A stretch of 64,000 bases of DNA from an uncultured Candidatus Saccharibacteria bacterium. Lineage in GTDB: Bacteria > Patescibacteriota > JAUYIX01 > CAYMIK01. Where the stretch lies: positions 48,670-112,669 of the forward strand of contig CAYMIK010000001.1 in the NCBI GenBank assembly GCA_964390745.1, read 5' to 3'. Below the pieces are notes generated by a model. It was not told the origin of the DNA. It was given only the letters and a program-made list of their open reading frames with translations, and made no database searches. Every line of letters starts with the position of its first letter. The stretch's first letter is position 1. Below, piece by piece: positions 1,742 through 58,050 of the stretch. The position numbers and the translations under genes are program-made.

Positions 1742-1884
1742 TGGATTACCTAGTATGCCATGCAAAAAAGTTTTTGTCGAGCTTCGAGTAGGAATTTCTG
1801 CAAAGCCACATCACCCAGCGAAGAATCTTCGTCGGGTTGATGGGCAAGACGTAGCTTGCACTGTGCCTCGCAGGTTGCGAGGAC

Positions 1885-2223
1885 TTACGGACGCAACTCG
1901 CGCGGAGCGTCCAGAACGTAAGACAGCCGCGCGAAGCTCTCGATGATCTCGTCGAGTTTCTTGGAGTCAGAAAGAAGGAGCTGTCGCACCTCTTCCGTGT
2001 CCTCCGAGTGCCCGATCGTGTTCGCGGCATGGCCCAGGAATCGATCCTCCAGCCGTTCCGCCGTGATCCTGGACAACTTCAGGGCATCCTGTAGAACGGA
2101 CACGATGCCGTTAGGGTTGTCCGGCGCTTCAGGTTTGCCGGAGTCTGCCGCAGTTTCAGCCCGTGGCAGACGGTCCGACCCCATGAAGAACCGTTTCTTC
2201 GAACTTGGATATTCGAGGCTCAT
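1885..2223 (-). CDS. Hypothetical 112-aa protein, 4th gene of high-GC operon (island A)
   Basis: ORF MSLEYPSSKKRFFMGSDRLPRAETAADSGKPEAPDNP... with strong RBS AAGGAGGAGG 4 nt upstream (revcomp of 2224-2235). High-GC codon usage unlike flanking genes. No recognisable family. Confidence 0.6.
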   Translation of the reverse strand: MSLEYPSSKKRFFMGSDRLPRAETAADSGKPEAPDNPNGIVSVLQDALKLSRITAERLEDRFLGHAANTIGHSEDTEEVRQLLLSDSKKLDEIIESFARLSYVLDAPRELRP

Positions 2224-2235
2224 GCCTCCTCCTTG

Positions 2236-2562
2236 TCAGCGGTTTCTGATCCGCAGAAAGTTCAGCACCATTTGAATGCGCTCATTCCGTTCTGTTCCCT
2301 CGAACGCAGTTGCTGCGAGCTGTGCCTGGAAGCAGGTGTACTCGTGCGTCCCAACCAGGTAGACGATGAAGTCGGGCGCCGTGCTCCACGAAGACACGAG
2401 GTCGATGTGTTGATCGGGTGCCATGCTGAGGATGTTGACGGTCTCCATGATCTCGAGTCCGATTCTCATTCGCGATGCCGCGAAGCTGGACTCGTCGTTG
2501 TCCAACCTCTCGAGCCGTGCCAGGTGCATCTTTGCATCCCGCCTTTTCGAATTGTTGGACAT
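2236..2562 (-). CDS. Hypothetical ~108-aa protein, 3rd gene of island A; start taken at internal Met MSNNSKRR
   Basis: ORF 2236..2625 on the minus strand. The internal ATG at 2560-2562 is preceded by RBS GGAGAGGAA, whereas the upstream Met (2625) has no RBS. High GC. No recognisable family. Confidence 0.55.
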   Translation of the reverse strand: MSNNSKRRDAKMHLARLERLDNDESSFAASRMRIGLEIMETVNILSMAPDQHIDLVSSWSTAPDFIVYLVGTHEYTCFQAQLAATAFEGTERNERIQMVLNFLRIRNR

Positions 2563-2771
2563 GATTCCTCTCCGTTGGTTCGTGGTGAAGGGTTCTATGA
2601 GCATCCTAACGACAACCTTATGCATTGTAAAGCCTTACGACGAAGCCATTTTCCCAATGGCAAAAGTCGCGTGACGGTGTTCAGTCACTGCAACTCCCTC
2701 TTGACCCGGTCGTGGTCGCAAGGTGCCTCCTACGCGTGCGAATAGCGAACGCTTGGGTATTTCGCGTGCCG

Positions 2772-3137
2772 TTATACGGCACGCACTCGTCCTCTCTGCT
2801 GCCTGAGCCATACCCGGAATGGCCCATAGTACTGCTGGTACAGCAGGTGGCCCGTGCTCCCTGCGAGACGTGGTGCGACGAGGAGAAGGTTATCCTGCGT
2901 CGCGAGATTCTGGAACGAAAGGCGGCTCTTGATGGGCGGGTTGAGAAGCCCAAGTTCCACCGCCACGTACACCGCGAAAAGCGGTGCCCAGTTCTTGGCG
3001 ACGGAGTCCTTTACCCCGCAGATCTCCACGAGATTCCGTGCGATGTCATCGCGGACTCGGGCCAGATGGTCACATCGACCCAGTGCCTCGGGAACGATTG
3101 TTCCCCCTCCAGTTTCGGTGATGTACCGCTGGCTCAT
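2772..3137 (-). CDS. Hypothetical 121-aa protein, 2nd gene of island A
   Basis: ORF MSQRYITETGGGTIVPEALGRCDHLARVRDD... with RBS GGGGGAGGAAG 4 nt upstream. High GC. A hairpin GTGCCGTTATACGGCAC overlaps its stop. No recognisable family. Confidence 0.6.
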   Translation of the reverse strand: MSQRYITETGGGTIVPEALGRCDHLARVRDDIARNLVEICGVKDSVAKNWAPLFAVYVAVELGLLNPPIKSRLSFQNLATQDNLLLVAPRLAGSTGHLLYQQYYGPFRVWLRQQRGRVRAV

Positions 3138-3183
3138 GTCTTCCTCCCCCTGTGAAGGTGTGACTGCTCGGTCTACGAGGGTG

Positions 3184-3531
3184 TTACGACTGCACGGCGA
3201 CTTCCGCCGGGTTCTCTCGCATGTACTTCCTCACGAGCTCCTGACTATCAAAGAAGTCGCTGCTCTCGAGTTTCCAGGCGCACTCCTCGAGCTGGGCGAG
3301 TGAGACTTCGGTATTGGGTGGCAGGTCGTGCCTCCAACGGACGAAGCGATCGACGCTCCGCATCGATGTAAGGCGATCCAGACACGAGTGGGTCTCGAGG
3401 TGGAGCCCAATGCTCGTGCGGGCGGCCTGTCGACGTATTTCGCCCGTCTTGAGCGCCATTCGACCCTTCCACTCCCGGACGAGCTGAACTGCATGCTTCA
3501 AGAAGTTCGGGTTCGTCGTTTCCTGAGTCAC
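3184..3531 (-). CDS. Hypothetical ~115-aa protein, 1st gene of island A (GTG start)
   Basis: ORF (M/V)TQETTNPNFLKHAVQLVREWKG... with RBS GAGGAGG 6 nt upstream of GTG at 3529-3531. High GC. No recognisable family. Confidence 0.55.
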   Translation of the reverse strand: MTQETTNPNFLKHAVQLVREWKGRMALKTGEIRRQAARTSIGLHLETHSCLDRLTSMRSVDRFVRWRHDLPPNTEVSLAQLEECAWKLESSDFFDSQELVRKYMRENPAEVAVQS

Positions 3532-3581
3532 GGTGTCCTCCTCGGCTTGGCCGGTGATTGTGAGGTGGGTCTCGCGGCTTC

Positions 3582-3611
3582 ACTATAGAGGTGACTTTGG
3601 CTGTATGTCAA
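3582..3611 (-). promoter_or_regulatory. Sigma70-like promoter for island A operon (TTGACA-18-TATAGT on minus strand)
   Basis: Revcomp of 3582-3611 reads TTGACAtacagccaaagtcacctcTATAGT, about 50 nt upstream of the first island-A gene. Confidence 0.45.
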
Positions 3612-3651
3612 TGTGCTCGCAAACCCGCACAAAACCTGCTATTATACCCGC

Positions 3652-4239: not shown

Positions 4240-4250
4240 TTCAAAGACTC

Positions 4251-5240: not shown

Positions 5241-5250
5241 GAGTAGAAAA

Positions 5251-5583
5251 ATGGAAAAGAAGCTTTTCATTGTCTCGGGTGTCTTTCTGGTAATAGCCAT
5301 TGTCTTTGGTATTTTTTATTTTATGAATCGAACTCCTGTACAAAAAGAACCCGTAAACTTTGCAGACCCAGCAACCCTCGACTCTGATAACGATGGTCTT
5401 ACTGACGCAGAAGAGCAGCAAGCAAAAACAGACGTACATCAAGCTGACAGTGATGGAGATGGACTGACTGACTACCAAGAAGTGAAAACATTTTTCACGA
5501 ATCCCAACTCACAGGATACGGATCACGACGGATATAGCGACAAGGCTGAGATTGATACGAAGCATAATCCCAACGGAGCATAA
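5251..5583 (+). CDS. Small membrane-anchored protein with three thrombospondin-type-3-like Ca-binding repeats (DxDxDGxxDxxE)
   Basis: N-terminal TM helix (LFIVSGVFLVIAIVFGIFYF), then DSDNDGLTDAEE, DSDGDGLTDYQE, DTDHDGYSDKAE. Confidence 0.6.
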   Translation: MEKKLFIVSGVFLVIAIVFGIFYFMNRTPVQKEPVNFADPATLDSDNDGLTDAEEQQAKTDVHQADSDGDGLTDYQEVKTFFTNPNSQDTDHDGYSDKAEIDTKHNPNGA

Positions 5584-5588
5584 GAGCC

Positions 5589-6920: not shown

Positions 6921-6933
6921 CGAATTTGCAAGC

Positions 6934-7421: not shown

Positions 7422-8012
7422 ATGAAAAGCGAAAATATCCTTTTTGTTGATACGATAACGAAAAAAGCCGGTATGACCATTTCACGAGGCGGGAAGCTTT
7501 TTACTGCCCATTTTGGAGAGAGGCACCAATATTCTCGTGATCTTATTAGGGTCTTTGATACTGTTTTGAAGAAAGCGCGTCTGAAACCTGCCAATCTGGC
7601 CGGTGTTGTGGTCTTGGTTGGACCTGGCTCATATACCTCGATTCGTATTGGGGTTTCTTTTGCAAACGCACTGGGTTTTGCGCAGAACGTGCCTGTTGCG
7701 GCCAAAACTCTCTTTGAAGCGCTGCCTCATGGCTCCAAGGAGACAGTTCTTTTGGAAGCAGGCCGAGGGAATATCTTTTACCACAAAGCTTCCAAGGAAG
7801 GTGTATGGACAAATGCTGATTTGGCAAAAAAGACTGGCGAGTTTGTTGGTTTGGAACTTTCCGAAGAAACCCTGGCTCAATTTTCGAAGAAGCCAAAAGA
7901 AGCGACCCTTGATATTGCGGCCGTTTTGTCTGATGTGAAATGGCCCAAAAAATTTGCACCCGTTGCCGCGCACTACATCTTGCCACCGAATATTATGGTG
8001 AAGAAGAAATAA
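7422..8012 (+). CDS. tsaB: tRNA threonylcarbamoyladenosine biosynthesis protein TsaB (YeaZ-like)
   Basis: GPGSYTSIRIGVSFANALGFA matches the YeaZ/TsaB signature. 196 aa. Confidence 0.7.
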   Translation: MKSENILFVDTITKKAGMTISRGGKLFTAHFGERHQYSRDLIRVFDTVLKKARLKPANLAGVVVLVGPGSYTSIRIGVSFANALGFAQNVPVAAKTLFEALPHGSKETVLLEAGRGNIFYHKASKEGVWTNADLAKKTGEFVGLELSEETLAQFSKKPKEATLDIAAVLSDVKWPKKFAPVAAHYILPPNIMVKKK

Positions 8013-8100
8013 TCAAGAAAATAAGAACCAAGCCGGGCCTTGCGACGTCGCGGATGCGTCGTCGAAAGGTCACCGGCTGGCGCCAAGCTCTTGGGCTTGG

Positions 8101-8523
8101 CTATTCGCACAGGTTGAGCTGCTTTCGGCACGTGCTGCCGATCAGGTGTTCGGGGTCTAGGCTCGGGAGCTTACCCGAAACCAGGTAGAGAGGGTTGGGG
8201 TCCTCATACCCCCTGAGAAGGAAGACCTTCTCCTCTTGCATGACCCCTCCGGGATCGTGCGGGGGCTCGACCCTGCGGGTCGCGACCGCCACCACCTTCA
8301 GGTTCTCTGGTGTCTTGGGGTCGTTTTTCAGGTCCCACCAGTCGGTCACGACGGCGGTCTTCTTGGTCTCGAGGATCGCGATCTGCCGCTCGCGCTCCTC
8401 GAGCTTCCCGGCCGCGATGACCAACGTGAGCCCCGTGCCCGCAATGGCCAGGATGCCCACGAGGAAGATCATGCGACCGTAGAACTTGATCGTATCCTCG
8501 CGGTAATCTTTCTGAATCGCCAT
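8101..8523 (-). CDS. Hypothetical 140-aa single-pass membrane protein encoded in a high-GC island (island B)
   Basis: MAIQKDYREDTIKFYGRMIFLVGILAIAGTGLTLVIAAG... has a cytoplasmic N-terminus, one TM helix and about 100 aa outside. RBS GGGAGAG upstream. G+C far above the flanks. Hairpins plus a T-run lie downstream around 8028-8100. Confidence 0.55.
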   Translation of the reverse strand: MAIQKDYREDTIKFYGRMIFLVGILAIAGTGLTLVIAAGKLEERERQIAILETKKTAVVTDWWDLKNDPKTPENLKVVAVATRRVEPPHDPGGVMQEEKVFLLRGYEDPNPLYLVSGKLPSLDPEHLIGSTCRKQLNLCE

Positions 8524-9029
8524 TCGACTCTCCCTGCTCTTGTGCCAAAAGGCCGAAGTCGAGGTGATCCCGACATTCGTAAGAGACTCATCAAGGTATC
8601 ACAAATACCATCTTTTGTCAACCCTCTATTTAACGCATATTTAAGCCATTTTTTAGGGATAATTAATCTTTGGGCCGCACAATGAGTAGTAGCACCAAAG
8701 TCGCAATTATTATGCGAGGAGTCGGGGATTGGGAGGTGAAATAAGGACCTCGAACCCACCCATTAAGCTTTGGCTTAACCAAGCCTAATCCCCAGGGGTG
8801 TGGAAAAAATGGCCAAAAAAGCCCTTCGTGGAGGCCGAAAAATGAGGCTTAAATAAGCCCAAAAACCCCCTTTTTCTTGACATGAGCCGCCACGCATGAT
8901 AACCTTCGACCTAACAATTGCATACAAGGTCAAGGCCTAAAGGTTCATAGTTTATTACCTAATTAACCAACGAACCACGAACCAGAAGGTCTTTCGTACA
9001 ACCCCCGAAAAAGGGATTGTGCACTGTTC

Positions 9030-10376: not shown

Positions 10377-10805
10377 ATGCCAAAATCAAAAAAGAAAAAA
10401 CAACTCGAAACTGAGAACACCGAAGTGCTTACGCAGGATTCTACGGATACGAAAGAAACGAATCAAAAAGATGACGACCTGCAACTCTCAGATCAAGACA
10501 TTTCGCAGATTATGGATTTGCGCGCCAAAAAACTTGGGGTGCTTTTAGCTACCTCTACTATGCCCGACGAAGTAAAAGAGGCATGGGTGGCGCTTCTCCC
10601 TGAACTCTCATTGAGCCAGTTGGATCGACTTACTAACATCTTGGAAGCCGAGTATTTGAATAACGGAACAGCACCTATCGATGAATTCTATTCCACCAAG
10701 TGGAAAGAGGCGAAGGAAGAGTATTTTGAAGCGATTGAAAAGATCGAAGATGATGCGAGAGAGAAAGTAGCGAAGTTTCAGAATATTCAAAAAGAGTTGC
10801 ACTGA
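10377..10805 (+). CDS. Small acidic hypothetical protein (142 aa), translationally coupled to giant protein
   Basis: RBS AAAGAGG. Product is acidic and K/E/D-rich. Its stop TGA overlaps the ATG of the next gene (TGATG at 10803-10807). Confidence 0.6.
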   Translation: MPKSKKKKQLETENTEVLTQDSTDTKETNQKDDDLQLSDQDISQIMDLRAKKLGVLLATSTMPDEVKEAWVALLPELSLSQLDRLTNILEAEYLNNGTAPIDEFYSTKWKEAKEEYFEAIEKIEDDAREKVAKFQNIQKELH

Positions 10806-27920: not shown

Positions 27921-27934
27921 TCTCATGAGACTAT

Positions 27935-27966
27935 AAAAAAGAGCGCTTCGTGCGCTCTTTTTTGTT
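27935..27966 (+). terminator. Rho-independent terminator after first surface-protein gene
   Basis: AAAAAAGAGCGC-ttcgt-GCGCTCTTTTTTG. A perfect 14-nt palindrome AGTCTCATGAGACT also sits at the stop codon (27919-27932). Confidence 0.7.
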
Positions 27967-28021
27967 CGTTGAAAAACTGCCCTAAAAATGGTATGATCCT
28001 GATACGAAAAAACAAAAATAC

Positions 28022-36968: not shown

Positions 36969-37068
36969 TGTTTTTCCGCTCCTTTCGTGCAGGAATTATA
37001 CCATAAAATAAGCCACTACTTCTGGTGGTCCAAGAAGGGAGAGCCCCACTTGGGTCAGCTCAAAAGCG

Positions 37069-39158: not shown

Positions 39159-39161
39159 ATA

Positions 39162-39941
39162 TTACTTCGCTACCTTTAAGCTTTCTTGCAAGATGCTCAT
39201 TAGGTCACCAACTTCTACCTTCTTTACGCTCTTGGTTTCTTTTGGAACCTTCAATTTGCCATGACGCTTCTTCTCGATGAGTGCCAACAGTCGTTTCTTG
39301 TAGGTGTCAGTATATTTCGTGGCATCAAACTTGTCAGTCATTTGAGAAATCAGCGAGTGCGCCATTTGAATTTCTTTTTTGGAAAATTCTTGTTTCGGTA
39401 TGGAAACAATTTCTTCTACCGGGCGAAGTGTTTGTGCAAAGTGCATCAGTTCCAACATGAGCGCACCCTTGCGTTCCGTGATGGCTGCTAAATGTTGTTT
39501 ATTTCGAATGACTACTTTGGCAATGCCAAGCTTATCAGAATCATGAAGTGCCTTGGCGAGCAATGAATACGCGCGTTTGCCACCAGTGTCTGGCGCAAGA
39601 GCGTAGGGTTTATCAAATAATAGTGGGTCAACCTCTGATCGATCAACGAACTCCAGGATGCTTACACTTTTTGTGAGTTCTAAGTCTGCGCGCTTAAAAT
39701 CTTTATCGTCTAAAATGACGTACTTTCCTTTTTTGTATTCATATCCTCGGACAATTTCGTCCCAAGGAATGGCACGATTGGAGTTTTGTTCCACGCGAGC
39801 AAAGTGGATGGGTTTCAAATCGGTTTTATGCAAAAAATGAAAACGCAAATTTTCTGTTTTTTGAACAGAGTGCAAAGAAACGGGTATGGAGACGAGTCCA
39901 AAACCGATGGTGCCTTTCCAGAGCGGGCGTCCAGACTTCAT
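39162..39941 (-). CDS. ku: Ku-family DNA end-binding protein
   Basis: MKSGRPLWKGTIGFGLVSIPVSLHSV... is a canonical bacterial Ku N-terminus. 259 aa with a lysine-rich tail. 3 nt upstream of the ligD start. Confidence 0.85.
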   Translation of the reverse strand: MKSGRPLWKGTIGFGLVSIPVSLHSVQKTENLRFHFLHKTDLKPIHFARVEQNSNRAIPWDEIVRGYEYKKGKYVILDDKDFKRADLELTKSVSILEFVDRSEVDPLLFDKPYALAPDTGGKRAYSLLAKALHDSDKLGIAKVVIRNKQHLAAITERKGALMLELMHFAQTLRPVEEIVSIPKQEFSKKEIQMAHSLISQMTDKFDATKYTDTYKKRLLALIEKKRHGKLKVPKETKSVKKVEVGDLMSILQESLKVAK

Positions 39942-40024
39942 ACAACCTCAAATTATTACCCTTGTATTCTAGCGCGAATCGAGAAAAATGTCTTGAGGTT
40001 GGCGATTCTCTGAGCGTAGTTATT

Positions 40025-40064
40025 TTGCAAAAAGAATCACACCGGCTCGGGGCAGCGAGCCGGT
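40025..40064 (-). terminator. Rho-independent terminator of island C gene
   Basis: Minus strand reads CACCGGCTCG-ctgccc-CGAGCCGGTG followed by TGATTCTTTTTGC. Confidence 0.7.
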
Positions 40065-40137
40065 GAAGAAGGGATGCGCGGAATTTCGCGCGATAGTACT
40101 GATTGTCATCTGGCCTGCCCGCCAGAGAGCCCAGCTC

Positions 40138-40485
40138 TCAGCCTGTACGCTGCCGCTGCTCGTTCGCCGAGCAGAGCACGGCAACGGTGCCACGCACATC
40201 GCGGAGGTGGGCCTCCGCGTTCGGCATCCTGTCCCTGATCATGAAGATCAGTTCGGGGTAGGCGGGCGTAAGCAGCGTGTCCACCTCGACGATCACGGTC
40301 GTTGCGCCCAGCATGAGCGCAGCGTTGGGACCCTGTGCGAACCGGGTCAGTACTGCCGCCAGGTTCCGTACGAGCTCCGGGCGCGCGTGGCCATCCAAAG
40401 GATCGGATGGGTCCCGGGCGATGCCCCGCAGTGAGAACCGCGGGCATCCATTTTCGAGACTTCCTTCGGGAATCGTGATTTCCAT
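40138..40485 (-). CDS. Hypothetical 115-aa cytoplasmic protein encoded in a high-GC cassette (island C)
   Basis: MEITIPEGSLENGCPRFSLRGIARDPSDPLDGHARPELVRNLAAVLTRFAQGPNAALMLGATTVIVEV... with RBS GGAGGAAA 4 nt before the ATG at 40483-40485. GC3 very high versus neighbours. Possible roadblock/LC7-like fold, a weak guess. Confidence 0.55.
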   Translation of the reverse strand: MEITIPEGSLENGCPRFSLRGIARDPSDPLDGHARPELVRNLAAVLTRFAQGPNAALMLGATTVIVEVDTLLTPAYPELIFMIRDRMPNAEAHLRDVRGTVAVLCSANEQRQRTG

Positions 40486-40513
40486 CGTTTCCTCCAAACA
40501 CGGGGTTTAACTC

Positions 40514-40542
40514 AGTATATGAAGGCATTAGCATCCTGTCAA
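40514..40542 (-). promoter_or_regulatory. Near-consensus sigma70 promoter for island C gene (TTGACA-17-TATACT)
   Basis: Minus strand reads tgttcaTTGACAggatgctaatgccttcaTATACTgagtt, about 25 nt upstream of the RBS. Confidence 0.55.
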
Positions 40543-40611
40543 TGAACACAAAAAGAGTTCAGCGATCATGGTTGCCCAAAAGAAAGATCCAGGGTATAAT
40601 TTACAAACATC

Positions 40612-41709
40612 TTGGGGCTAACTCTTTTCATGATGCAAGCAAAATTTGAACGAAGAAAAATAGTCCGAACCCAAACACTTGGGGAAGTTTTTCGTCGTAC
40701 GCGGTTAGAGCGTGGTTATCAACTCGATGAAGTTGCCAAGCGTACCATGATCCCAGTGGCCTTCGTTGAATATCTGGAAAAAGGGAAGCATGAAGCACTC
40801 CCGGCACGAGTGTACGTGGAAGGCTATGTCAGAAAGGTTGCGGATGCCCTGAACCTCAACGAAAACGCCATGGTGAAAATTTATAAACGAGAAGTGGGAA
40901 TTCAGGAAAACCTCGCCAAAGAACACAAAAAACACGAAAAGACCTCGCGATTTAAAAACCCGCGGTTTGTTGTTCATCCAACGCTCCTTCGAAATGTTGT
41001 GGTTGTCCTCCTTATCTTTGCTGCCGTTGGATACCTCTGGTTTCAGGTCAGTTCGCTTTCAAAGGCTCCACAGATCTCACTCATTCAGCCCAACAGCGAT
41101 ACCCATATTAACACCGACGAACTTCTGGTGCTTGGCAATGTGAGCAAAGGCGCATCGGTAACAATTAACGGGCAGTCAGTTTTTGTGAGTGAATCGGGTG
41201 ATTTCAAGGAAAATCTTACCCTTGAAGAAGGTGCCAATAGCATTCAAGTGCAGGCGCAAAGCCGTCTAGGGAAGGTAACCACTATTACCCGACAGGTGTA
41301 TGCCGATGTTCTCACGAACACAAAAGTAGCAACGACGAAGACTTCTGGCTCATCCGGGTCAACTTCCACCACGAATGGCGTCTCGAATACGCCGGCCGGA
41401 ACACCGATGGTTTTGGGTTCTGAAACAACATCCTCGGCAACGGTTCCTGTGTCTCAAGACGTCAAGGTGGGCGTAGCCATTGCTGATACGGCTACGTGGG
41501 TACAGGTTTCAGTAGATGGGAAACAGGCTTTTTCTGGCACGATGTTGCCTGGTTCTTCAAAGTCTTTCACGGGCAAAGACAACGTCACGATTACGAGCGG
41601 TAAAGCAAACAAGACGCTTATTACGTTCAATGGAAAAAATATCGGCGCGCTCGACTCTTCTGGTGGCGTAGTGCGTGATGTAAAGTTTGATAAGAATACG
41701 AGTTTGTAA
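40612..41709 (+). CDS. RodZ-like cytoskeleton protein (XRE-type HTH, TM, C-terminal DUF4115-like domain)
   Basis: N-terminal HTH (TLGEVFRRTRLERGYQLDEVAKRT), a TM helix (VVVLLIFAAVGYLWF), and a Ser/Thr-rich linker. Likely real start is the ATG at 40630 (MMQAKF); the track starts at the TTG at 40612. Promoter TTGCCC-17-TATAAT at 40578-40601. Confidence 0.65.
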   Translation: MGLTLFMMQAKFERRKIVRTQTLGEVFRRTRLERGYQLDEVAKRTMIPVAFVEYLEKGKHEALPARVYVEGYVRKVADALNLNENAMVKIYKREVGIQENLAKEHKKHEKTSRFKNPRFVVHPTLLRNVVVVLLIFAAVGYLWFQVSSLSKAPQISLIQPNSDTHINTDELLVLGNVSKGASVTINGQSVFVSESGDFKENLTLEEGANSIQVQAQSRLGKVTTITRQVYADVLTNTKVATTKTSGSSGSTSTTNGVSNTPAGTPMVLGSETTSSATVPVSQDVKVGVAIADTATWVQVSVDGKQAFSGTMLPGSSKSFTGKDNVTITSGKANKTLITFNGKNIGALDSSGGVVRDVKFDKNTSL

Positions 41710-42010
41710 ATTGCAAAAACGGACAACTCACCACTGGCGAGATTGCCGGCGGGGAGGTATCTTGTATTTTCCCCGCGATCGCTCTGGCTGTGGCCAATGT
41801 GGCGTGGGCTAGAGCTTGGTCACGGCGGGGCCGAGCAGAGACCCGGGTGGATCACCGGAAGATTCGGGGTGTCTGTCGGCGAGCGTAAGGCGTAGCGGCC
41901 TCTGCGCGACGGGGACTTCGCGAGGTGCGGAGGTGGGCTGCGTTGGGAGCGGAGCCTCGCCGATCCCACTCCCTTGTCGGTTCCGCCGCGTGCGCAAGCC
42001 GGATTCGAAT

Positions 42011-42226
42011 TCAGGGGTTCCCACTGCTTTTCCCTCCGCGAAGGTCATCCATGCTCAGGATGAGTTTGGGGTTTGTTAGGTCCACGGCGGGACCGGCGAA
42101 GCCGAGTCCACCTCGCCCCTCGACCATCTCCCACGGATCTCGCAGGTGGTAGGGGCGAATTCGTACTTCATTCTCGGCTGTGCGTCCAGAGGATTGAGAC
42201 TTTTCTCCAGCGGGCTCGTTCTTCAT
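42011..42226 (-). CDS. Hypothetical 71-aa protein in high-GC island D (possibly the 5' part of a frameshifted longer gene)
   Basis: MKNEPAGEKSQSSGRTAENEVRIRPYHLRDPWEMVEGRGGLGFAGPAVDLTNPKLILSMDDLRGGKSSGNP with strong RBS AAGGAAGAGG 3 nt before ATG. A second ORF in the +1 frame (41809..42048) continues for 79 aa. Confidence 0.4.
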   Translation of the reverse strand: MKNEPAGEKSQSSGRTAENEVRIRPYHLRDPWEMVEGRGGLGFAGPAVDLTNPKLILSMDDLRGGKSSGNP

Positions 42227-42393
42227 GGCCTCTTCCTTCTGACAGCGATGTGAATGATGCCATGGTACACACAAAACCCCTCTTTCGTAAAGGGTACTTT
42301 TCGGCTATAATGAACGTACTTTAATGTCTGCTTTAGACATTTTTAAGGAGGAGCTGGTAGTTTCAAGGAGCGAAGTAATTAAAGAAAGGTTTT

Positions 42394-45300: not shown

Positions 45301-45365
45301 CCTTCGGCTTTTCAAAAAAACAAAAGGCACAAAGGAAGGCTTTTGCTTTTTTGAAAAGCCGAAGG
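45301..45365 (-). terminator. Long inverted repeat (19-bp perfect arms) with flanking T/A tracts between rpsR and efp; probable terminator of the rpsF-ssb-rpsR operon
   Basis: CCTTCGGCTTTTCAAAAAA (45301-45319) ... TTTTTTGAAAAGCCGAAGG (45347-45365). Confidence 0.6.
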
Positions 45366-45371
45366 TGATGA

Positions 45372-46873: not shown

Positions 46874-47116
46874 TGATTTTCCTTTATGTATAGCTAAAAA
46901 ATAGGGTCCAGACATGGGTGCCCCGCGTATAAAGGCGGGATCTGGAAGCCCCCGCAGCTTATCATTTGGGGTGTTTTTTGTCAAGAACATGGGGCAAATT
47001 CGAAGCCCCCTCGACCACGCAGTGGCGTGAGCGAAGGAGGCCCCGAAGGACAGCCGTTGGCGGTACAACTTCGGGCGCCGTCTTCTGTCTAGGGCCAAGA
47101 AGGCGGCGTTGTGCGG

Positions 47117-47272
47117 CTACTCGAGCCGCTCTGAGAGAGCATGGAAACCGAGCGCGATGACGAGTAGTGTGAATCCGGTGTAGGGCAGGTCGTGGTCGAT
47201 GAACCAGCAACCCACGCCTCCTACTTTCTCGCATGCTCGGTTGAGTGAGCTGCTAAGTGTCAGACGGTCCAT
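47117..47272 (-). CDS. Hypothetical 51-aa small membrane protein, 2nd gene of high-GC island E
   Basis: MDRLTLSSSLNRACEKVGGVGCWFIDHDLPYTGFTLLVIALGFHALSERLE. RBS GAGAGGAG 5 nt before the ATG. One TM segment. Begins 32 nt after the stop of the 185-aa gene. Confidence 0.4.
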   Translation of the reverse strand: MDRLTLSSSLNRACEKVGGVGCWFIDHDLPYTGFTLLVIALGFHALSERLE

Positions 47273-47304
47273 CGAGCTCCTCTCGTATGAGTCAGGATGT
47301 GTAG

Positions 47305-47862
47305 CTAACCTCGTGTCAGAAACAGACCCAGAACGATTGCGAAGGGGACCAGGATCATCGCGATGAGGTTCACGAAGATCCAAAACAGGTCCCTGGCGGT
47401 CAGATAGTTCAGAACAGGCCACCGGCCTCCGAAAAACAACTGATGGAGGCGACAGGCAAAACGATCGTGATGCTTCTCGAGCGGAGTCGCCGTGACGTTG
47501 TCGTCCGGCCAGCCTCGGGGAGCAAGCTTTCTGAAGACTCGCATCTTCACTGCGTTGGTCTGGTTCCTTGCACACCTCGAGAGCTTGAACGGGATTGTGG
47601 AGGCCACGAGCAGCAGAATCCCGATCATGTTGAACGGTCCCATCTTGGGGTAAGGCCGTGGTAGCCGTGTCCCAGGTGGGTCCAGGTGCATCCACCGCGC
47701 GTTGCTCGGATCGTGGGCGTCTTCAAGCAGTGGGATGGGGTTTCCGAATCCCCACGCCATGAAAGCTTCGCAGCCCCATTGAAGGAGGCCGCCTGCGAAC
47801 ATCACGATTCCAGCGAGAGAGTCCAGGAAGGGGGTGCGCTCGTCATGCAGCTTCGCCATCAT
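47305..47862 (-). CDS. Hypothetical 185-aa membrane protein (3 predicted TM helices) in high-GC island E
   Basis: MMAKLHDERTPFLDSLAGIVMFAGGLLQWGCEAFMAWGF...FNMIGILLLVASTIPF...LFWIFVNLIAMILVPFAIVLGLFLTRG. RBS AAAGGAAG upstream. High GC. No recognisable family. Confidence 0.55.
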   Translation of the reverse strand: MMAKLHDERTPFLDSLAGIVMFAGGLLQWGCEAFMAWGFGNPIPLLEDAHDPSNARWMHLDPPGTRLPRPYPKMGPFNMIGILLLVASTIPFKLSRCARNQTNAVKMRVFRKLAPRGWPDDNVTATPLEKHHDRFACRLHQLFFGGRWPVLNYLTARDLFWIFVNLIAMILVPFAIVLGLFLTRG

Positions 47863-47953
47863 GAGGCTTCCTTTCGATCGGCTCGAAGCCGAGGAATGAG
47901 CAAAACTGCCTGCAGTCTAGCAGGAAGGTGTTTTTAAAATCAAGTTTCTTATG

Positions 47954-49057: not shown

Positions 49058-49664
49058 AAAGATTAAGGAGTTCAGATGGCGAATCTACAATAGCAGCTGG
49101 ATTGCCTTCTTGCAACAGCTTTCGGTCATGGAAGCCCCAGGTAACAGCAATAGCGGGCACTCCTACTTTTGTTGCTTCCAAGATGTCTCCGAGCGTATCT
49201 GTGATAATCACCGAGCTCTCTGGGGATGCTTTATGTTTCTGCAGGAGGTACTGAATTTTTTCGTGCTTGCTTTCATGAAATTCAAAACCGAGAATTTCTT
49301 CAAATGATCCTTCGAGTCTGTGCTCTGCAAGAAATTTTTCTACGGAACTCTTTGCACTTGAGGTGACAATGTTCATACGAAAATTTTTTGAGAGACGGGA
49401 AACTACGTTCTCCATTCCGGGTACGGGGTACATACCTCGGACCCTTTTGTCATAGTTCTTTGCCCACTGCGGCTTGATGTCTTCTATGGGTACAGATGGC
49501 TTCGTGCGTATGCTATCGTAGACATTTCCTGCAAAGTACATTCTATAGTCTTCTTCTCGCGCTTCTGGTATGAATGACTGCCAAATTTCAAAGGATAATT
49601 TAAAACTATCGATGATAACACCATCAAAATCAAAGTGAAGAAGTTTTGTGTGCTTAAAAGTCAT
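49050..49664 (-). CDS. HAD-superfamily hydrolase (phosphatase-like)
   Basis: Motif I FDFDGVIIDS and 204 aa. 8-nt overlap with the ychF start. Confidence 0.6.
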   Translation of the reverse strand: MTFKHTKLLHFDFDGVIIDSFKLSFEIWQSFIPEAREEDYRMYFAGNVYDSIRTKPSVPIEDIKPQWAKNYDKRVRGMYPVPGMENVVSRLSKNFRMNIVTSSAKSSVEKFLAEHRLEGSFEEILGFEFHESKHEKIQYLLQKHKASPESSVIITDTLGDILEATKVGVPAIAVTWGFHDRKLLQEGNPAAIVDSPSELLNLFE

Positions 49665-49923
49665 GAAGATAGGCCCGTTGAATGCGAAGAGTCTATCGTG
49701 GTTTGCGGCTTTTGTAAAGCATTATAGCTTTTTCTTCGACTTCTTTGGAACCTTCGCACCAGCTTTCCTCGCCTTCGACAAACCTACCGCAATAGCTTGT
49801 TTGCGGCTCTTGAAGCGACGTGTGCGCTTTTGCTCATGCAGTTCTTTGTGCACGTGTAAACCCTTGACACGCTGCTCAATAGGGTATATTGTCTATTACA
49901 CAATAAATATTGTCTGTATAACA

Positions 49924-51807
49924 ATGAAGAACCTCTTTCGCTCGGAGACGGCCTATGAACTCCTTTCGCTTTTTACTCAAGAACCGGTACAAAAGCGGTA
50001 TCTTGCGGAGATCGCTAAGGCACTCCAAAAAGATATGGCGAATACCACTCGTGAGCTCGAGAAACTCGTGAAGGAAGAAATTCTTGTCATGACTGAAGAA
50101 AATGGAAAGAAGTACTATCGACTCAATAGTTCCAATCCATTCACAAAAGAACTCTCGGCACTTTTTAAAAAGCTCGATGATGTGTACGTGCAGCGATCGT
50201 TCCAAAACAAGTGGCTTCTTGCCGAGGATATCCCAAACATGGATCCGTTTTTTAGTATGTTGTGGATGCGCTCGTTTGTTGATGAGTTTAAAAATCCAAG
50301 CGGAGTGGCATACAAAGAAGTTGTTGGAATATTTAAGGACTACCACCTATGGTTTTTCTTTGATGAAAAAGATGCCTACAACGTGGGCGAACACATTGTG
50401 AATAAAATGGAAAAGTCGCCGGAGTTCATGGAAGAGGTGAATAAAGAGATTGTGAAGCACTCCGATAAGCTTCGAGATTTTGCTCTTACGTTGCCAGAAG
50501 AAAACCTCAAGAAACTTTCGAATAAAAAACTTTGGGAGCTGTACAAAAAACACGACGACATTCACACGGCCTACTATCAGTGGGGATGGATTCCGGTAGC
50601 TGCTGATATGTTTGGTGGCAACCTCACGACTCGAGGTAAGGAAATTCTGAAGCAAAAAGGAGTCTCCGAAGAAAAGGTGAATGAGTACTTAAATATTCTT
50701 ACACAACCTACAGCCAAGTCGGCAATCGCGGAGGAGCAAGAAAGTTTAGAGCGCATTGGTGCGTTGGTGCAGGAAGATTCAAAGCAAGTGAAAATATTTG
50801 CTGAAATATTCCGAAAGTTTAAGGAAGAAGATGTAAAAAAGTACGGCTTGTATACCCACAGCGAAGAGTATGAGAAATTGTTTGAAGAAACGGTTCGCGT
50901 TTTGGAGTCACAGATTGCTCCAAAGATCCTGAAGAAGTTACAAGAACACTTCGCCAAATACTTTTACACAAAGTTTTTGTTTACAGAAGAGCAGGGCGTG
51001 TATTCGTTTGAGCACTATCTAAAATCTTTGGTTCGGCTCGTAAACTACGAACCAAATCTGGCTGTAAAGCTGCAAGACGAATCAAAAGAATTGGCAAGAA
51101 ATGCTAAGATTCGAAGTGAACTTATAAAGAAACTCAAGCTGAATACTTCGGAGATCCGATTCTTTGATGCCTGGGGTGAATTTATGGTGACAAAGATTTA
51201 CCGAAGATTCGCTCAGCTTTTTGCTCTGTACAAGATGGTTCCCATCCTCACGGAAATAGGTGCGCGTTTTGGTCTTACGCTCAAGCAAACGAAGTTCTTG
51301 ATGTACGAAGAGATTCGCGACGGGCTCTTGGAGGATCGCGTGAACAAAGAAATGACACGACAACGCGTTGCATTCTCAGTTTTTGTGACGCGTCCTGATT
51401 CGAGCGAGTTTATTACTGGGCTTTCGGCGAAGAAGATTGCCGAAGTTGTACAAAAGGAACACATTGAACAGGTGAGTGAGTTTTCAGGCCAATGTGGCTG
51501 CCCGGGCATTGCAGAGGGTCGTGTTCGTATCATCAATGAGGCACATGAAATGTCAAAGATGCATGATGGTGACATCCTTGTAGCAATTTCTACGCAGCCC
51601 GATCTTGTTCCAGCTATGAAAAAAGCCGCGGCAATTATTACAGACCAGGGAGGCGTGACAAGCCATGCGGCCATTGTTGCGCGCGAGATGCGAACACCCT
51701 GCGTGATTGGAACCAAGATTGGATCTAAGTTGCTTCATGATGGTGACTATGTGAAGGTGGACGCAACAAAGGGGAAGGTCCTCATTATAGAGAGCGCGAA
51801 AAAGTAA
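49924..51807 (+). CDS. PEP-utilising-enzyme mobile-domain protein (628 aa) with unassigned N-terminal region
   Basis: C-terminal GGVTSHAAIVAREMRTPCVIGT is the PEP-utilising phosphohistidine mobile domain. No ATP-grasp/nucleotide-binding region is recognisable upstream. Start taken at MKNLFRSETAYELL (ATG 49924), with promoter TTGACA-17-TATATT at 49874-49902. Confidence 0.6.
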   Translation: MKNLFRSETAYELLSLFTQEPVQKRYLAEIAKALQKDMANTTRELEKLVKEEILVMTEENGKKYYRLNSSNPFTKELSALFKKLDDVYVQRSFQNKWLLAEDIPNMDPFFSMLWMRSFVDEFKNPSGVAYKEVVGIFKDYHLWFFFDEKDAYNVGEHIVNKMEKSPEFMEEVNKEIVKHSDKLRDFALTLPEENLKKLSNKKLWELYKKHDDIHTAYYQWGWIPVAADMFGGNLTTRGKEILKQKGVSEEKVNEYLNILTQPTAKSAIAEEQESLERIGALVQEDSKQVKIFAEIFRKFKEEDVKKYGLYTHSEEYEKLFEETVRVLESQIAPKILKKLQEHFAKYFYTKFLFTEEQGVYSFEHYLKSLVRLVNYEPNLAVKLQDESKELARNAKIRSELIKKLKLNTSEIRFFDAWGEFMVTKIYRRFAQLFALYKMVPILTEIGARFGLTLKQTKFLMYEEIRDGLLEDRVNKEMTRQRVAFSVFVTRPDSSEFITGLSAKKIAEVVQKEHIEQVSEFSGQCGCPGIAEGRVRIINEAHEMSKMHDGDILVAISTQPDLVPAMKKAAAIITDQGGVTSHAAIVAREMRTPCVIGTKIGSKLLHDGDYVKVDATKGKVLIIESAKK

Positions 51808-55610: not shown

Positions 55611-55828
55611 TAGATAAAGAGAGCTGCTACAGACGCTCCGAAAAAGAGGATAGCGAGTACGATCGTAATAATAAACAGTGCCTTTTCGGGACCTCTTTTT
55701 TGGAAAATGATTGTCTCGCCACCAAAGGTGTTGCCAATGCCCGTGCTCTTGTTCTGTAGCAAAACAGCTACAGTCATGAGGACTGCGAGTACAATTTGAG
55801 CAATAGTAATGATCTGAGTAATAGGCAT
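55610..55828 (-). CDS. secG: Preprotein translocase subunit SecG
   Basis: MPITQIITIAQIVLAVLMTVAVLLQNKSTGIGNTFGG... 72 aa. 1-nt overlap with the downstream SBP gene start. Confidence 0.75.
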   Translation of the reverse strand: MPITQIITIAQIVLAVLMTVAVLLQNKSTGIGNTFGGETIIFQKRGPEKALFIITIVLAILFFGASVAALFI

Positions 55829-56108
55829 AGATTCAGTCGGGGGCGGGTTTCGGACCCGCTTGGGACATTTCAGGTAACACGAAGACAATAGCACGAAGGG
55901 TGTGATTTGTCAAGGTTGGAGAGTTTTTTGAGGTACGTTTGAGGGTGAGTTCAAGGGGCGGAAAATGGACGAAAAACAAACACCGAGAAGCTTGCTGTTG
56001 CAGGGCTTCTCGGCGGAAGCCGCCTAGACTCAAAGTTATTATAGTTATGGGCTTTTTGCTATAATTCTGGTGAGACGTGAGGGGAAGGATACACGAAAAC
56101 GTGGGGAC

Positions 56109-56137
56109 TTGACAAAGTCCTTACAATCGTGTATAAT
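56109..56137 (+). promoter_or_regulatory. Perfect-consensus sigma70 promoter (TTGACA-17-TATAAT) driving island F gene
   Basis: ggggacTTGACAaagtccttacaatcgtgTATAATagcc. RBS GGAGGAA at 56204-56210 precedes the GTG at 56215. Confidence 0.6.
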
Positions 56138-56214
56138 AGCCCGTTCACAATCTCTGTTCTGTTCCTTAACATCAATTCGACACTCGAGGTGAACATCGAG
56201 TGTGGAGGAACATC

Positions 56215-57963
56215 GTGGAAAAGCCCAAGCTTACGTGGAGCCAGGCTATGACGATTGGCGCCCTGGCCTGGGCGCAAGAAGTTCAACACGAAGTTCGAAC
56301 TATGACTCAGGAGGTTCTCGAGCGCATCCAGCAGTTTTCGTGGATCGCGCTTCGGGCTAACCTCGGGGTGTTCGCAAAGGCGTTTCTGAAGTACATCGCG
56401 CCTGCGCTCATCCCGCTCGTGCTCATGCTCGTGGTTCCTTCGGCAGTCGGAGGAATCGTGAAGCTGCTCTGTGTGCCCGTCTTCATCGCTGTCGCCCGTT
56501 GGGGCTACAAGCGGTTCAAGGCGGCGTGTTGGGACAAGCCGTGGATTTTTCTTGCGGCTTCGATCGCCATCCCTGTGGTGGCGAGCTTCGGGTTCCGATA
56601 CGCCATCCAGGCGTTCGGGTTCAAGCTCTTGCTCGTCGCGATCCCACTAACCCTGATTCGGTTCATGTGGAGTTTCGGACGTCTCACGCTCGTGCTGTTT
56701 GCGGAGACGTTCGTACTGGTTGCTGTTGTCTTCAACTTCGGCTTCCCGCGCGTCTTCAAGTGCGATGCCCAGAGGGGCGTCGAGCCTCTCGTGACTGGGT
56801 GCACCATCACCCAGAACCACATCCCGTGGAACACGATGACGATGTCGAGTATCCTCGGGGACTGGTTGAAGACGTTGCCCGGGTTTCCGGGTAACTCCAA
56901 CGTCTCCGCTACCTTCCGAGACATTTCGGTGTCTTCGGATGGCAAGGCGTTCTGGGGAGTGGCCGGATGGTCGGACACTCAGGTGGAGAAGTCCGTGGCG
57001 GTCAAGATCGATATCGCGACCCACAAGGTCATCAAGGCGATCTGGATCTATACGCCATTTACGGTTCGCTGCAGCAAAGAGTTCGGTCTCTGTTCTATCG
57101 TTTCGCAGATGGGTAATCGAGTCTATCTGATCGATGACGTCACCAACGAGGTCGTGCGAGAGTACGATCTCAGTGGGGCGATGCCAAGCTACCAGATGGA
57201 AACAGGGAGAGGAGAGATCCTTTTCCTGTGCATGCCCTCCAGCGGTATCGACCGAGAGCGCATTGCGCCGCTCGGACCAGTGGAGCAGGTTCGCTGGGAA
57301 GACACCGGCGCCTCGCTACTTCTGGGTAAGCTGGAACTGGCGACGGGAGTCTTTACGATCCAGCCGGTGAAGGGCAAGTACGACAGCGCCCTCATGGGTA
57401 AGGAGACCATGTTCGCTTCGTATGACCCGGTACATGAGAAGATCATGCTGGGTGCAACAAAGTTGGGCGTTATCGACCTCGGGTCGATGACGTACAGCAA
57501 GGTGCCTGGCAGCGGTCTCACGCAGTTTCTTCCGGGAAACACGACGGCCGGTGCCGTGGTGGATACCCGGACCGGGACCATCTACGCAAACAGACCAGCA
57601 TTCGGCATCTATAGTTACCGCTACGAGAACGGCGTGCTGCGGGTGACGGGGAAGATCTCCGTGGACCTTGGTGGGCGTCTTCTTCTGACCGATCCGCGAC
57701 GCGGATTGGTCTACAGCGCGAACTATGGGCGTGGATTTGTGGAGGTCATCGACCCTACAGTACCTAGCCCAAAGCCGATGCGATGGACGGTGGGTAACAA
57801 CATCCGTAGCCTCAAGCTTGATCTCGGCGAGAGCCCGGATGAAGACTGGCTGTATGTTGCCAGCGCGTTCGGATATACGAGAATCAATCTGAGCGAGGCC
57901 CTCGGGGAGCGTTACCTCCCGAATGTACAGACCGCGTCGAATTCGGATGCGGTCATACGGTGA
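56215..57963 (+). CDS. Hypothetical membrane protein (4-5 N-terminal TM helices) with C-terminal YVTN-like beta-propeller domain, encoded in high-GC island F
   Basis: 583 aa from the GTG at 56215; the track starts at 56200. TM helices IAPALIPLVLMLVVPSAVGGIV, FLAASIAIPVVASFGF, LLLVAIPLTLIRFMW, LTLVLFAETFVLVAVVF. C-terminal repeats resemble YVTN propeller blades (VYLIDDVTNEVVREYDL, LGATKLGVIDLGSMTYSKV, GLVYSANYGRGFVEVIDPTV). High GC. Confidence 0.6.
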   Translation: MEKPKLTWSQAMTIGALAWAQEVQHEVRTMTQEVLERIQQFSWIALRANLGVFAKAFLKYIAPALIPLVLMLVVPSAVGGIVKLLCVPVFIAVARWGYKRFKAACWDKPWIFLAASIAIPVVASFGFRYAIQAFGFKLLLVAIPLTLIRFMWSFGRLTLVLFAETFVLVAVVFNFGFPRVFKCDAQRGVEPLVTGCTITQNHIPWNTMTMSSILGDWLKTLPGFPGNSNVSATFRDISVSSDGKAFWGVAGWSDTQVEKSVAVKIDIATHKVIKAIWIYTPFTVRCSKEFGLCSIVSQMGNRVYLIDDVTNEVVREYDLSGAMPSYQMETGRGEILFLCMPSSGIDRERIAPLGPVEQVRWEDTGASLLLGKLELATGVFTIQPVKGKYDSALMGKETMFASYDPVHEKIMLGATKLGVIDLGSMTYSKVPGSGLTQFLPGNTTAGAVVDTRTGTIYANRPAFGIYSYRYENGVLRVTGKISVDLGGRLLLTDPRRGLVYSANYGRGFVEVIDPTVPSPKPMRWTVGNNIRSLKLDLGESPDEDWLYVASAFGYTRINLSEALGERYLPNVQTASNSDAVIR

Positions 57964-57976
57964 TGGAGGTTCTGTT

Positions 57977-58050
57977 CAGGACGCTGTGTCGTCCTGAATT
58001 CGCCCGGTGCGCACTCTTTTTCGAAGAGAGCGCCCGGGTTTTTCTTTTGC
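57977..58050 (+). terminator. Tandem hairpins plus T-run terminator after island F gene
   Basis: TTCAGGACG-ctgtgt-CGTCCTGAA, then GCGCACTCTT-tttcg-AAGAGAGCGC followed by CCGGGTTTTTCTTTTG. Confidence 0.55.

Follow-up and report, generated by a model that had tools for sequence, protein, structure and literature searches.

The DNA analysed here is a stretch of 64,000 nucleotides (hereafter the window) from an uncultured Candidatus Saccharibacteria bacterium (contig CAYMIK010000001.1), in which six short GC-rich islands, named A to F, all lie between intact housekeeping genes. The islands stand out sharply in a 400-bp composition profile and a finer 150-bp scan; they total 6.4 kb (10% of the window) and have a G+C content of 0.576–0.616. 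The host background, represented by 540 host windows of 500 bp, averages 0.461 (standard deviation 0.026, maximum 0.55). The islands stand at z = 4.4–5.9 against this background, and none of the 540 host windows is as GC-rich. A model that saw only the letters and their open reading frames (ORFs) had previously described six such islands at these positions; the composition scans bear out this description, hereafter the sequence-only reading, and GC content is clearly non-uniform. With borders refined by homology, the islands span 1782-3613 (A, GC 0.578), 7997-8580 (B, 0.598), 39994-40529 (C, 0.604), 41709-42262 (D, 0.616), 46896-47937 (E, 0.576) and 56207-58051 (F, 0.578).

Island A (1782..3613, minus strand) is an operon of four to five genes in the gap between uvrB, which starts at 1741 on the minus strand, and ruvA, whose ATG lies at 3652. 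It reads toward uvrB from a promoter at 3582-3611 (minus strand; TTGACA-18-TATAGT). The genes are A4 (3184-3531), A3 (2772-3137), A2 (2236-2562, with its true start at the ATG at 2562) and A1 (1885-2223), all on the minus strand and each with a GGAGG-type ribosome-binding site (RBS) upstream; a possible mini-ORF lies between A3 and A2, around 2625-2711 on the same strand. Island B (7997..8621, minus strand) holds a single gene in the gap between tsaB and a LysM/CHAP hydrolase gene. This gene, B1 (8101-8523, minus strand), encodes 140 aa with one predicted transmembrane (TM) helix behind the RBS GGGAGAG, and is accompanied by a weak putative promoter (8593-8621, minus strand; TTGACA-17-TACCTT) and a tail with a hairpin and a T-run around 8030-8095 (minus strand). 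Island C (39994..40545, minus strand) lies between ku and rodZ. It has a promoter at 40514-40542 (minus strand; TTGACA-17-TATACT), a GGAGG at 40492-40496, a gene for a soluble protein of 115 aa (C1, 40138-40485, minus strand) and a terminator at 40040-40065 (minus strand).

Island D (41709..42262, minus strand) is the GC-rich spacer between rodZ and recA. It contains a conserved small ORF, D2 (42011-42226, minus strand, 71 aa), and an ORF overlapping it, D1 (41809-42048, minus strand); a strong promoter is absent. Island E (46996..47905, minus strand) is a two-gene operon between rpsF and ychF. E1 (47305-47862, minus strand) encodes 185 aa with about three TM helices, and E2' (47117-47272, minus strand) encodes a hydrophobic protein of 51 aa with the RBS GAGGAG; a GC-rich 3' tail follows (46996-47116, minus strand). 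The promoter of this operon is weak (TTGATT-18-TAGACT) and overlaps the conserved ychF terminator hairpin at 47909-47924. The conserved sequence CCTGCTAGACTGCAGG was considered as a cassette promoter and dropped: it is a hairpin with a T-run straight after ychF, and is thus more likely the ychF terminator. Island F (55918..58137, plus strand) lies between the secG/opp genes and a giant beta-helix gene that starts at 58138. It consists of a promoter (56109-56137, plus strand; TTGACA-17-TATAAT), a GGAGG at 56204-56208, the gene F1 (56215-57963, plus strand; 582 aa, GTG start) and a terminator around 57995-58040 (plus strand).

The signals that the sequence-only reading had attributed to the islands are largely present. 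Its near-consensus promoters were recovered by a scanner with 11 of 12 consensus matches for A, 11 of 12 for C and 12 of 12 for F. The terminator of C was called by the scanner (a stem of 10 pairs, 8 of them GC), and that of F was seen by eye as a bulged stem with a T-run. A promoter together with a terminator is therefore clearly predicted for C and F and a promoter for A, and such signals are weak or absent in B, D and E. The description of the islands as compact, individually expressed genes does not fit A with its four to five genes or E with its two. Island D falls short of a clean cassette in its weak periodicity and lack of a strong promoter, though one or more conserved small ORFs are present in it. 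The neighbouring genes are intact and match their orthologues in relatives in length, as the claim that no neighbour is disrupted had it.

The islands are coding DNA of a kind distinct from that of the host genes. G+C content at third codon positions (GC3) is 0.61–0.85 in the island ORFs (mean 0.725) and 0.443 ± 0.035 in 32 host genes (Mann-Whitney p = 2.5e-6); by island, it is 0.69–0.75 in A, 0.85 in B, 0.76 in C, 0.72/0.67 in E and 0.73 in F. Overlapping chance ORFs occur in several frames of the islands, as a result of the high GC content of the DNA. In one frame per island, the pattern GC1 > GC2 << GC3 is found; it is pronounced in every island but D, where codon periodicity is weak. The GC jump had been thought to be confined mostly to the coding region, but this proved incorrect: the untranslated regions, spacers and tails of the islands (1,207 bp) have a GC content of 0.566, against 0.427 in host intergenic DNA (2,539 bp), and the AT-rich part within islands is the core promoter only. 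GC-richness thus belongs to the DNA segment and not to codon choice. The boundaries of the islands in GC content are sharp, within about 50 bp, and the GC3 of flanking genes is not raised.

The cassettes share a codon signature and translation signals that are not those of the host. Correlations of relative synonymous codon usage (RSCU) are 0.77–0.86 among A, B+C+E and F and about 0 with host genes, compared with 0.95 between two halves of the host gene set; between the islands of the window and the cassettes of relatives, the correlation reaches 0.90. When restricted to G/C-ending codons, it is 0.69 with relatives' cassettes, against 0.21–0.35 for genomes that are natively high in GC and -0.15 for host genes. 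The GGAGG-type RBSs noted earlier are likewise confirmed and significantly stronger than those of the host. The mean energy of pairing with the anti-Shine-Dalgarno (anti-SD) sequence is -9.6 kcal/mol for island genes and -4.1 kcal/mol for 29 host genes (p = 1.3e-4), and -8.5 and -2.5 kcal/mol for cassettes and host genes in relatives (p = 4e-6).

On the host side, most genes in the window have no recognisable Shine-Dalgarno (SD) sequence (mean -4.1 kcal/mol; -2.5 kcal/mol in relatives), and in several, ruvA included, a -10 box lies only a few bases from the start codon. This suggests, on sequence grounds, that SD-independent or leaderless initiation may be widespread in the lineage.

Comparison with related genomes extends the pattern beyond this contig. 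Homologues place the host in the Patescibacteria (candidate phyla radiation). Relatives were taken from Logan assemblies, reached via homologues of F1, RodZ and FemX, and contigs found in this way are designated by L numbers (L161 to L174) below. Among GTDB representatives and JGI metagenomes, no close relatives were found (RecA at most 67% identical, YchF at most 57%, no RodZ). The relatives come from independent assemblies (DRR235453, SRR29270592, SRR14932486, JGI 3300045330/SRR23702522 and SRR30862820), and in those from at least five other samples, GC-rich ORFs without Pfam domains occupy the same intergenic slots. The closest comparison is with L167, which has the same gene order and encodes RNase J, YchF, SSB, HAD and Opp substrate-binding protein (SBP) sequences 98%, 95%, 89%, 87% and 77% identical to those of the window. 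Its E slot nevertheless holds 1.9 kb of unrelated GC-rich sequence (0.56–0.57) in place of island E, and the gene in its F slot is inverted and only 24% identical to F1 (GC 0.60, GC3 0.74, with flanks at GC3 0.34–0.45). The F slot of L165/L166 is likewise GC-rich (GC3 0.75).

Other slots show the same turnover. The uvrB-ruvA slot contains two to three other GC-rich ORFs in L172 and L173, with homology to the window breaking at 1781/1816 and 3606/3614. The slot between the tsaB/DHH and LysM genes has a different GC-rich ORF of 174 aa in L173 and is nearly empty in L172; around island B, homology with relatives is lost over 7699-8834. In L169 the rodZ-recA slot contains additional units beside homologues of D, and in L170/L171 it is an empty site of 128 bp; the rpsF-ychF slot has other GC-rich ORFs in L169 and L170, and two extra slots, holA-rpsT and rpsT-uvrB, are filled in L173. 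The segment 37004-40538, which comprises genes for non-homologous end joining (NHEJ) and island C, is absent from L169 and L170. In these contigs iPGM directly abuts rodZ, so the NHEJ genes and island C are additions in the window. The blastn breakpoints against L167, L169, L172 and L173 fall at gene ends. For the contents of A, B, C and E, homology between close relatives is not detectable, and contents differ even where flanking proteins are 77–98% identical.

The slots are therefore conserved across related genomes, and what fills them is acquired, lost, accumulated in tandem or exchanged, so that the cassette system is a property of the whole lineage and not of a single genome. The sequence-only reading had proposed that conservation of the islands at the same loci with native codon usage would speak against a foreign origin. 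The loci are indeed conserved; the contents differ, and their codons are non-native in every genome.

Three other differences between the window and its relatives were observed near these slots. In L172 (13671-14591) and L173 (13732-14661), a gene for a DHH-family phosphoesterase lies between tsaB and the LysM hydrolase gene; it is missing from the window, where B1 is found instead. The NHEJ set of the window (37004-39941; LigD primase-polymerase, ATP-dependent ligase and Ku) adjoins island C and has host-like GC content, and is a separate accessory insertion. In addition, a gene of host-like GC content for a 719-aa protein with a PEP-utilising mobile domain (49648-51807) is absent from L167, which has a 58-aa DUF6496 ORF at that position. 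This gene represents a second class of variable gene that is not GC-rich.

Purifying selection acts on the cassettes, which are genuine protein-coding genes. Those common to two genomes have ratios of nonsynonymous to synonymous divergence (dN/dS) of 0.12–0.41, compared with 0.02–0.13 for host genes, and are thus under looser constraint. For at least one cassette, movement between lineages postdates the divergence of the core genes on either side. A 105-aa gene in the A slot of L172 and L173 (dS 0.23, 92–94% nucleotide identity) is flanked in these contigs by uvrB, ruvA, femX and tsaB genes with dS values of 1.3–3.0 and identities of 65–87%; since the dS of the cassette is far below that of its flanks, it was exchanged after the two lineages diverged. 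L173 and L174 are identical where they overlap and hence uninformative for such comparisons. L172 also has an extra unit of about 480 bp that is absent from L173. It contains an AT-rich promoter, AAGGAGAG, a hairpin and a GC-rich ORF that encodes about 120 aa, and is inserted directly behind the terminator of the neighbouring cassette operon. No convincing target duplication accompanies this insertion, with a possible imperfect similarity of 13–18 bp at the site.

Island D has a different history from the others. It is homologous to positions 10963-11694 of L169 at about 70% nucleotide identity, with D2 61–65% and D1 49–59% identical at the amino acid level. Substitutions in D2 show a period of three, dN/dS is 0.12–0.23, and the motif RPxHLxDPW...GRGGL...GPAVDLTxPxLILS is retained. 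The part next to rodZ (41714-41849) is conserved at the nucleotide level and not clearly at the protein level. From these sequence comparisons, island D is not a recent expression unit but an older, vertically shared cassette, which may also include a non-coding element. Beyond the island, the recA leader (42262-42393) is about 95% identical to that of L169, compared with 85% nucleotide identity for the recA coding sequence. Right after its TATAAT box lies the palindrome AATGTCTGCTTTAGACATT, a candidate repressor operator resembling an SOS box.

The largest island protein, F1, belongs to a very rare family. A word-indexed homology search matched F1 to itself only, whereas 10 remote homologues emerged when 1.84 billion representatives were searched exhaustively with HMMER, the best of them 36–38% identical over nearly the full length (E = 7.5e-83). 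These homologues temper the earlier description of the island genes as orphans, which otherwise holds against Pfam, NCBIfam, PHROGs and PADLOC. The closest homologue, P0008, lies on a contig of 66.6% GC (L161) and is compositionally native there; another member lies on a contig of 58.7% GC from a flagellated bacterium. A single-sequence AlphaFold model of F1 was unusable, with a predicted local distance difference test (pLDDT) score of 43, and a model based on the homologue alignment was used instead (pLDDT 74 overall, mostly above 90 at residues ~185-565). It predicts four to six N-terminal TM helices followed by a seven-bladed beta-propeller. The top match in the PDB is E. coli YncE (Foldseek E = 3e-12, target-normalised TM-score 0.72, identity 16%), which lacks the N-terminal TM bundle of four to six helices, and the propeller also matches the YVTN domain of an archaeal S-layer protein (3vgz and 1l0q being the YncE and S-layer comparison structures). 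YVTN-like motifs are visible in the sequence, which scores 16.8 bits against the TIGR02276 repeat model (cut-off 27.85); matches in a viral fold library are to generic propellers. As modelled, F1 is a membrane-anchored beta-propeller of the YVTN/YncE type, plausibly located at the cell surface.

Members of the F family are found in the same slot in four genomes: the window, L162, L165/L166 and L167. They are 19–31% identical, the copies in the three related genomes being only 19–20% identical to each other, and F1 groups with P0008 rather than with its slot-mates. GC3 is 0.73–0.75 in the window, L165 and L167 and 0.57 in the L162 copy, which is only mildly GC-rich, and the copies in L165-L167 are in the opposite orientation to F1. 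Recurrence of so rare a family in one slot suggests either targeting or an old, fast-evolving resident. Upstream of another member, P0011, two small ORFs on L163 (9225-9967) are AT-rich (GC 0.42–0.45) on a contig of 59% GC, the reverse of the contrast that the window shows.

The remaining island proteins were not assigned to families. No match was found in Pfam, NCBIfam, PHROGs or PADLOC apart from the sub-threshold YVTN repeat of F1, and none of the 20 cassette ORFs tested, including 10 from relatives, has a Pfam domain. A tblastn search with all island proteins returned nothing from 50,697 phage (INPHARED) and 72,556 plasmid (PLSDB) records, IMG/VR scans with E1 and B1 gave no match, and a PDB sequence search with C1, A2, A3 and A4 gave nothing significant. 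The island proteins are not paralogous to one another, and the island ORFs are annotated as singletons from one 118-kb NCBI contig. The A operon and a pair of 126-aa and 105-aa genes in relatives resemble type II toxin-antitoxin modules in their layout of small overlapping genes only, as no toxin-antitoxin domain was detected in either with Pfam, NCBIfam, PADLOC or the PDB. Judging from predicted topology alone, F1, B1 and E1/E2' are likely to have envelope, surface or interaction roles, and A1-A4 and C1 are likely cytoplasmic.

Mobility functions were also sought. As the sequence-only reading had stated, nothing of the kind is associated with the islands: no integrase, transposase or recombinase domain was detected among the window ORFs scanned, ARAGORN found no tRNA or tmRNA in the window, and a window-wide repeat search together with inspection of 22 junctions found no shared repeat or att-like motif, no common motif and no target-site duplication. 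The window does encode RecA as well as the NHEJ set (Ku, ATP ligase and LigD-PrimPol). Its other genes include rpoB, rpoC, ftsK, murE and rnj.

Taking these results together, we propose that the islands are autonomous, moron-like cassettes that derive from a compositionally distinct pool and occupy a limited number of permissive slots in a chromosome of about 45% GC; we place the probability of this at roughly 60%. Horizontal acquisition best explains the non-host codon signature, the RBSs of foreign strength, the GC-rich non-coding parts and the cassette that is younger than its flanks. The typical unit would consist of a promoter, a strong SD sequence and between one and five small ORFs, in most cases with a terminator, and the pool would have a GC content of about 56–60%. 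New cassettes would enter when DNA taken up by the cell is inserted between genes independently of a recombinase (illegitimate or NHEJ-type insertion). Resident cassettes could then pass from one relative to another by homologous recombination in the conserved genes on both sides, and turnover would be too fast for them to ameliorate to host composition. Gene-sized horizontal acquisition, as the sequence-only reading had suggested, agrees with the foreign look of the units. Its notion of repeated acquisition from a high-GC donor, taken as six one-off captures, calls for revision, since the slots are lineage-wide.

Several results weigh against this proposal. Synonymous divergence between island D and its L169 homologue is saturated, but both remain at about 60% GC, which is not what simple amelioration predicts. 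The F family is very rare yet recurs in one slot of four genomes, which is awkward for random independent acquisition. Replacement mediated by the flanks has no positive evidence in the form of peaks of synonymous divergence, a diagnostic mark of replacement islands (PMC4033161), at the boundaries of E, a comparison that is insensitive in genomes about 80% identical; beside F, where identity is likewise only about 80%, a gradient of synonymous divergence is confounded by the generally variable SBP gene. Furthermore, no donor or vehicle was found in the phage, plasmid or IMG/VR collections. The orphan status of the small cassette proteins is itself weakly established: these were searched only with word-indexed or profile methods, exhaustive HMMER having been used for F1 alone, and the word-indexed search missed the true homologues of F1.

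The closest known analogues of the cassettes are phage morons and replacement flexible genomic islands. Morons are extra DNA of deviant GC content with their own promoter and terminator (Cumby, Davidson & Maxwell 2012, PMC3594210, following the concept of Hendrix and Juhala). Like the cassettes, they lie between two genes conserved in syntenic relatives, differ in GC from their surroundings, encode small accessory proteins of unknown function, often membrane proteins, and have no integrase or repeats at the unit; the ~480-bp unit of L172 is organised exactly as a moron. Morons, however, reside in phage or prophage genomes, whereas the islands are in a bacterial chromosome (uvrB/ruvA, rodZ/recA, rpsF/ychF) with no phage gene nearby. 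Unlike morons, the cassettes also reuse several slots across genomes and stack in tandem.

Replacement flexible genomic islands of aquatic prokaryotes have different genes at the same locus, and exchange by homologous recombination in their flanks has been proposed (Lopez-Perez, Martin-Cuadrado & Rodriguez-Valera 2014, PMC4033161). Different, often unalignable contents at the same locus, with no hallmarks of integrases or insertion sequences, are also seen in the A, B, E and F slots. Such islands typically hold loci for giant proteins or surface structures, and the F slot adjoins a hypervariable giant beta-helix protein; their variants encode the same kind of function, which among the slots described here is seen for the F slot, with the same rare family in four genomes, the contents of the other slots having no recognisable domains. 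They are, however, multigene regions of 10–100 kb (O-antigen, glycosylation), whereas those described here are islets of 0.5–1.9 kb that encode orphan ORFs (ORFans), and a uniform signature of high GC content and strong SD sequences is a feature of the cassettes and not of flexible genomic islands. Integron cassettes are similarly small, mostly single-ORF and in many cases ORFan units, which build up in tandem and are exchanged among genomes. They differ in having no promoter and lying in one array, whereas each unit described here brings or uses its own promoter, the units are dispersed over many slots, and integrase, attI and attC-like repeats are absent. A literature search, which was limited, found no account of GC-rich, strong-SD ORFan cassettes in fixed slots.

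A more far-reaching version of the proposal is that the clade keeps a dedicated cassette reservoir, targeted to and exchanged among fixed slots without a recombinase, the GC content of which is actively preserved. We regard this as a speculative extension that is unlikely to hold in full. The recombinase-free route could be competence combined with either NHEJ or RecA, or else some element or vehicle that has gone unrecognised. If true, this would represent a new chromosomal gene-cassette system, analogous in function to integrons and morons and mechanistically unrelated to them, which might supply variable surface and interaction proteins for an epibiotic lifestyle.

The alternative that best survives the data is that the islands are native, lineage-specific, fast-evolving genes that have occupied these slots from the ancestor of the clade onward, kept GC-rich by GC-biased gene conversion at recombination hotspots or by selection on DNA or mRNA. 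Three of the observations above fit it well: the F family retains a GC3 of 0.73–0.75 in three of the four genomes that share the slot despite 19–31% identity, island D has been inherited by both the window and L169 with no loss of GC content at saturated dS, and the giant surface protein next to the F slot is hypervariable at its N-terminus, as under diversifying selection. Even so, we consider this explanation improbable. F1 has the opposite orientation to the L165-L167 copies and is most similar to a gene of a natively 66% GC genome, the contents of A, B, C and E are unrelated between close relatives, and one cassette is younger than its flanks. Gene conversion would need a rise of GC3 in the flanks, which is not seen, and the GC edges are abrupt (~50 bp). 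Moreover, strong SD sequences in cassettes are lacking in native genes, and the slots show clean presence/absence polymorphisms with empty sites.

Acquisition as moron-like cassettes must also be weighed against independent captures from one high-GC cellular donor, such as the host of the presumed epibiont, with no shared pool or slots. The native position of the best F1 homologue on a 66.6% GC contig and of another member on a 58.7% GC contig accords with such a donor. Horizontal gene transfer is reported to be abundant in Patescibacteria and to include genes from other phyla, with most transfers coming from other Patescibacteria (PMC12455944). Random fragments of a cellular genome should often be partial genes with Pfam domains, but all 20 ORFs tested are Pfam-less and the units are complete with their own signals. 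The G/C-ending codon signature is nearer to that of other cassettes (0.69) than to natively high-GC genomes (0.21–0.35), and the same slots are reused in several genomes. A single donor is, as a result, quite doubtful.

It is very improbable that the islands are GC-rich structured non-coding RNA genes with spurious ORFs. High-GC DNA does give chance ORFs in several frames, periodicity is weak in D, and some 140 nt of that island (41714-41849) are conserved as nucleotides rather than as protein. Against this, Rfam gave no match in the window at gathering score, a permissive Rfam search of island D gave only a chance miRNA match (E = 0.2), and no tRNA or tmRNA is present. Periodicity is strong in the other five islands, F1 is a 582-codon ORF with homologues and a confidently predicted fold, SD sequences are correctly spaced, and dN/dS is below 0.5. 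For islands other than D, the RNA-gene explanation is rejected.

The last two possibilities are excluded by the filling of the same slots in independent assemblies of several samples. The source contig is metagenome-derived, so chimeric joins with high-GC reads in assembly or binning were considered; an artefact of this kind is hardly credible given six exact intergenic insertions with coherent signals and both flanks from the same syntenic genome. Deliberate engineering or recoding, which the sequence-only reading had entertained because near-consensus promoters, GGAGG RBSs and clean terminators resemble designed parts placed at neutral sites, has a negligible chance of being correct, as the cassettes have no known domain and no similarity to plasmids, markers or reporters, and environmental relatives carry equivalent but different cassettes that are under purifying selection between wild genomes.

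Orphan and recently acquired bacterial genes are usually AT-rich relative to their genome, and the reduced genomes of the candidate phyla radiation are thought to hold little DNA that could be dispensed with. In the 64-kb core region analysed here, about 10% consists of GC-rich ORFan units that look strongly expressed and turn over without recognisable mobility machinery. This points to a GC-rich donor or vehicle that is still hidden, unless some process maintains the GC-richness of the cassettes in a low-GC genome. If the pattern is general, it shows where the strain-specific functions of Patescibacteria sit, including candidate genes for host interaction, surface structures and conflict, and the combination of composition and RBS signature would let such genes be found automatically. 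The slots would also provide natural permissive insertion sites with native promoters, useful for the genetics of bacteria that are hard to manipulate.

Further variable or repetitive features were noted elsewhere in the window. The giant NosD/beta-helix surface protein next to island F (58138-64000, running off the window end) adjoins the F slot in four related genomes. It is 36–45% identical to its L167 orthologue in the N-terminal and middle parts and 65% identical in the C-terminal part, a sequence pattern that suggests a hypervariable surface locus. An ORF of 1911 aa without a Pfam domain (10805-16540) contains 54-nt tandem repeats at 16210-16395 and mild GC humps at 15012-15640 and 16155-16540; in relatives, ORFs of 871 to more than 1633 aa are found at its position. 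Two tandem paralogous surface proteins, with PKD and three CWB2 domains, are encoded at 24243-31186 and have a 300-nt stretch in common at 74% identity. Finally, between efp and ssb (45301-45365) lies a near-perfect inverted repeat of 26 nt, 96% complementary around a 13-nt loop and with A/T runs on both sides, which from its sequence looks like a bidirectional terminator.

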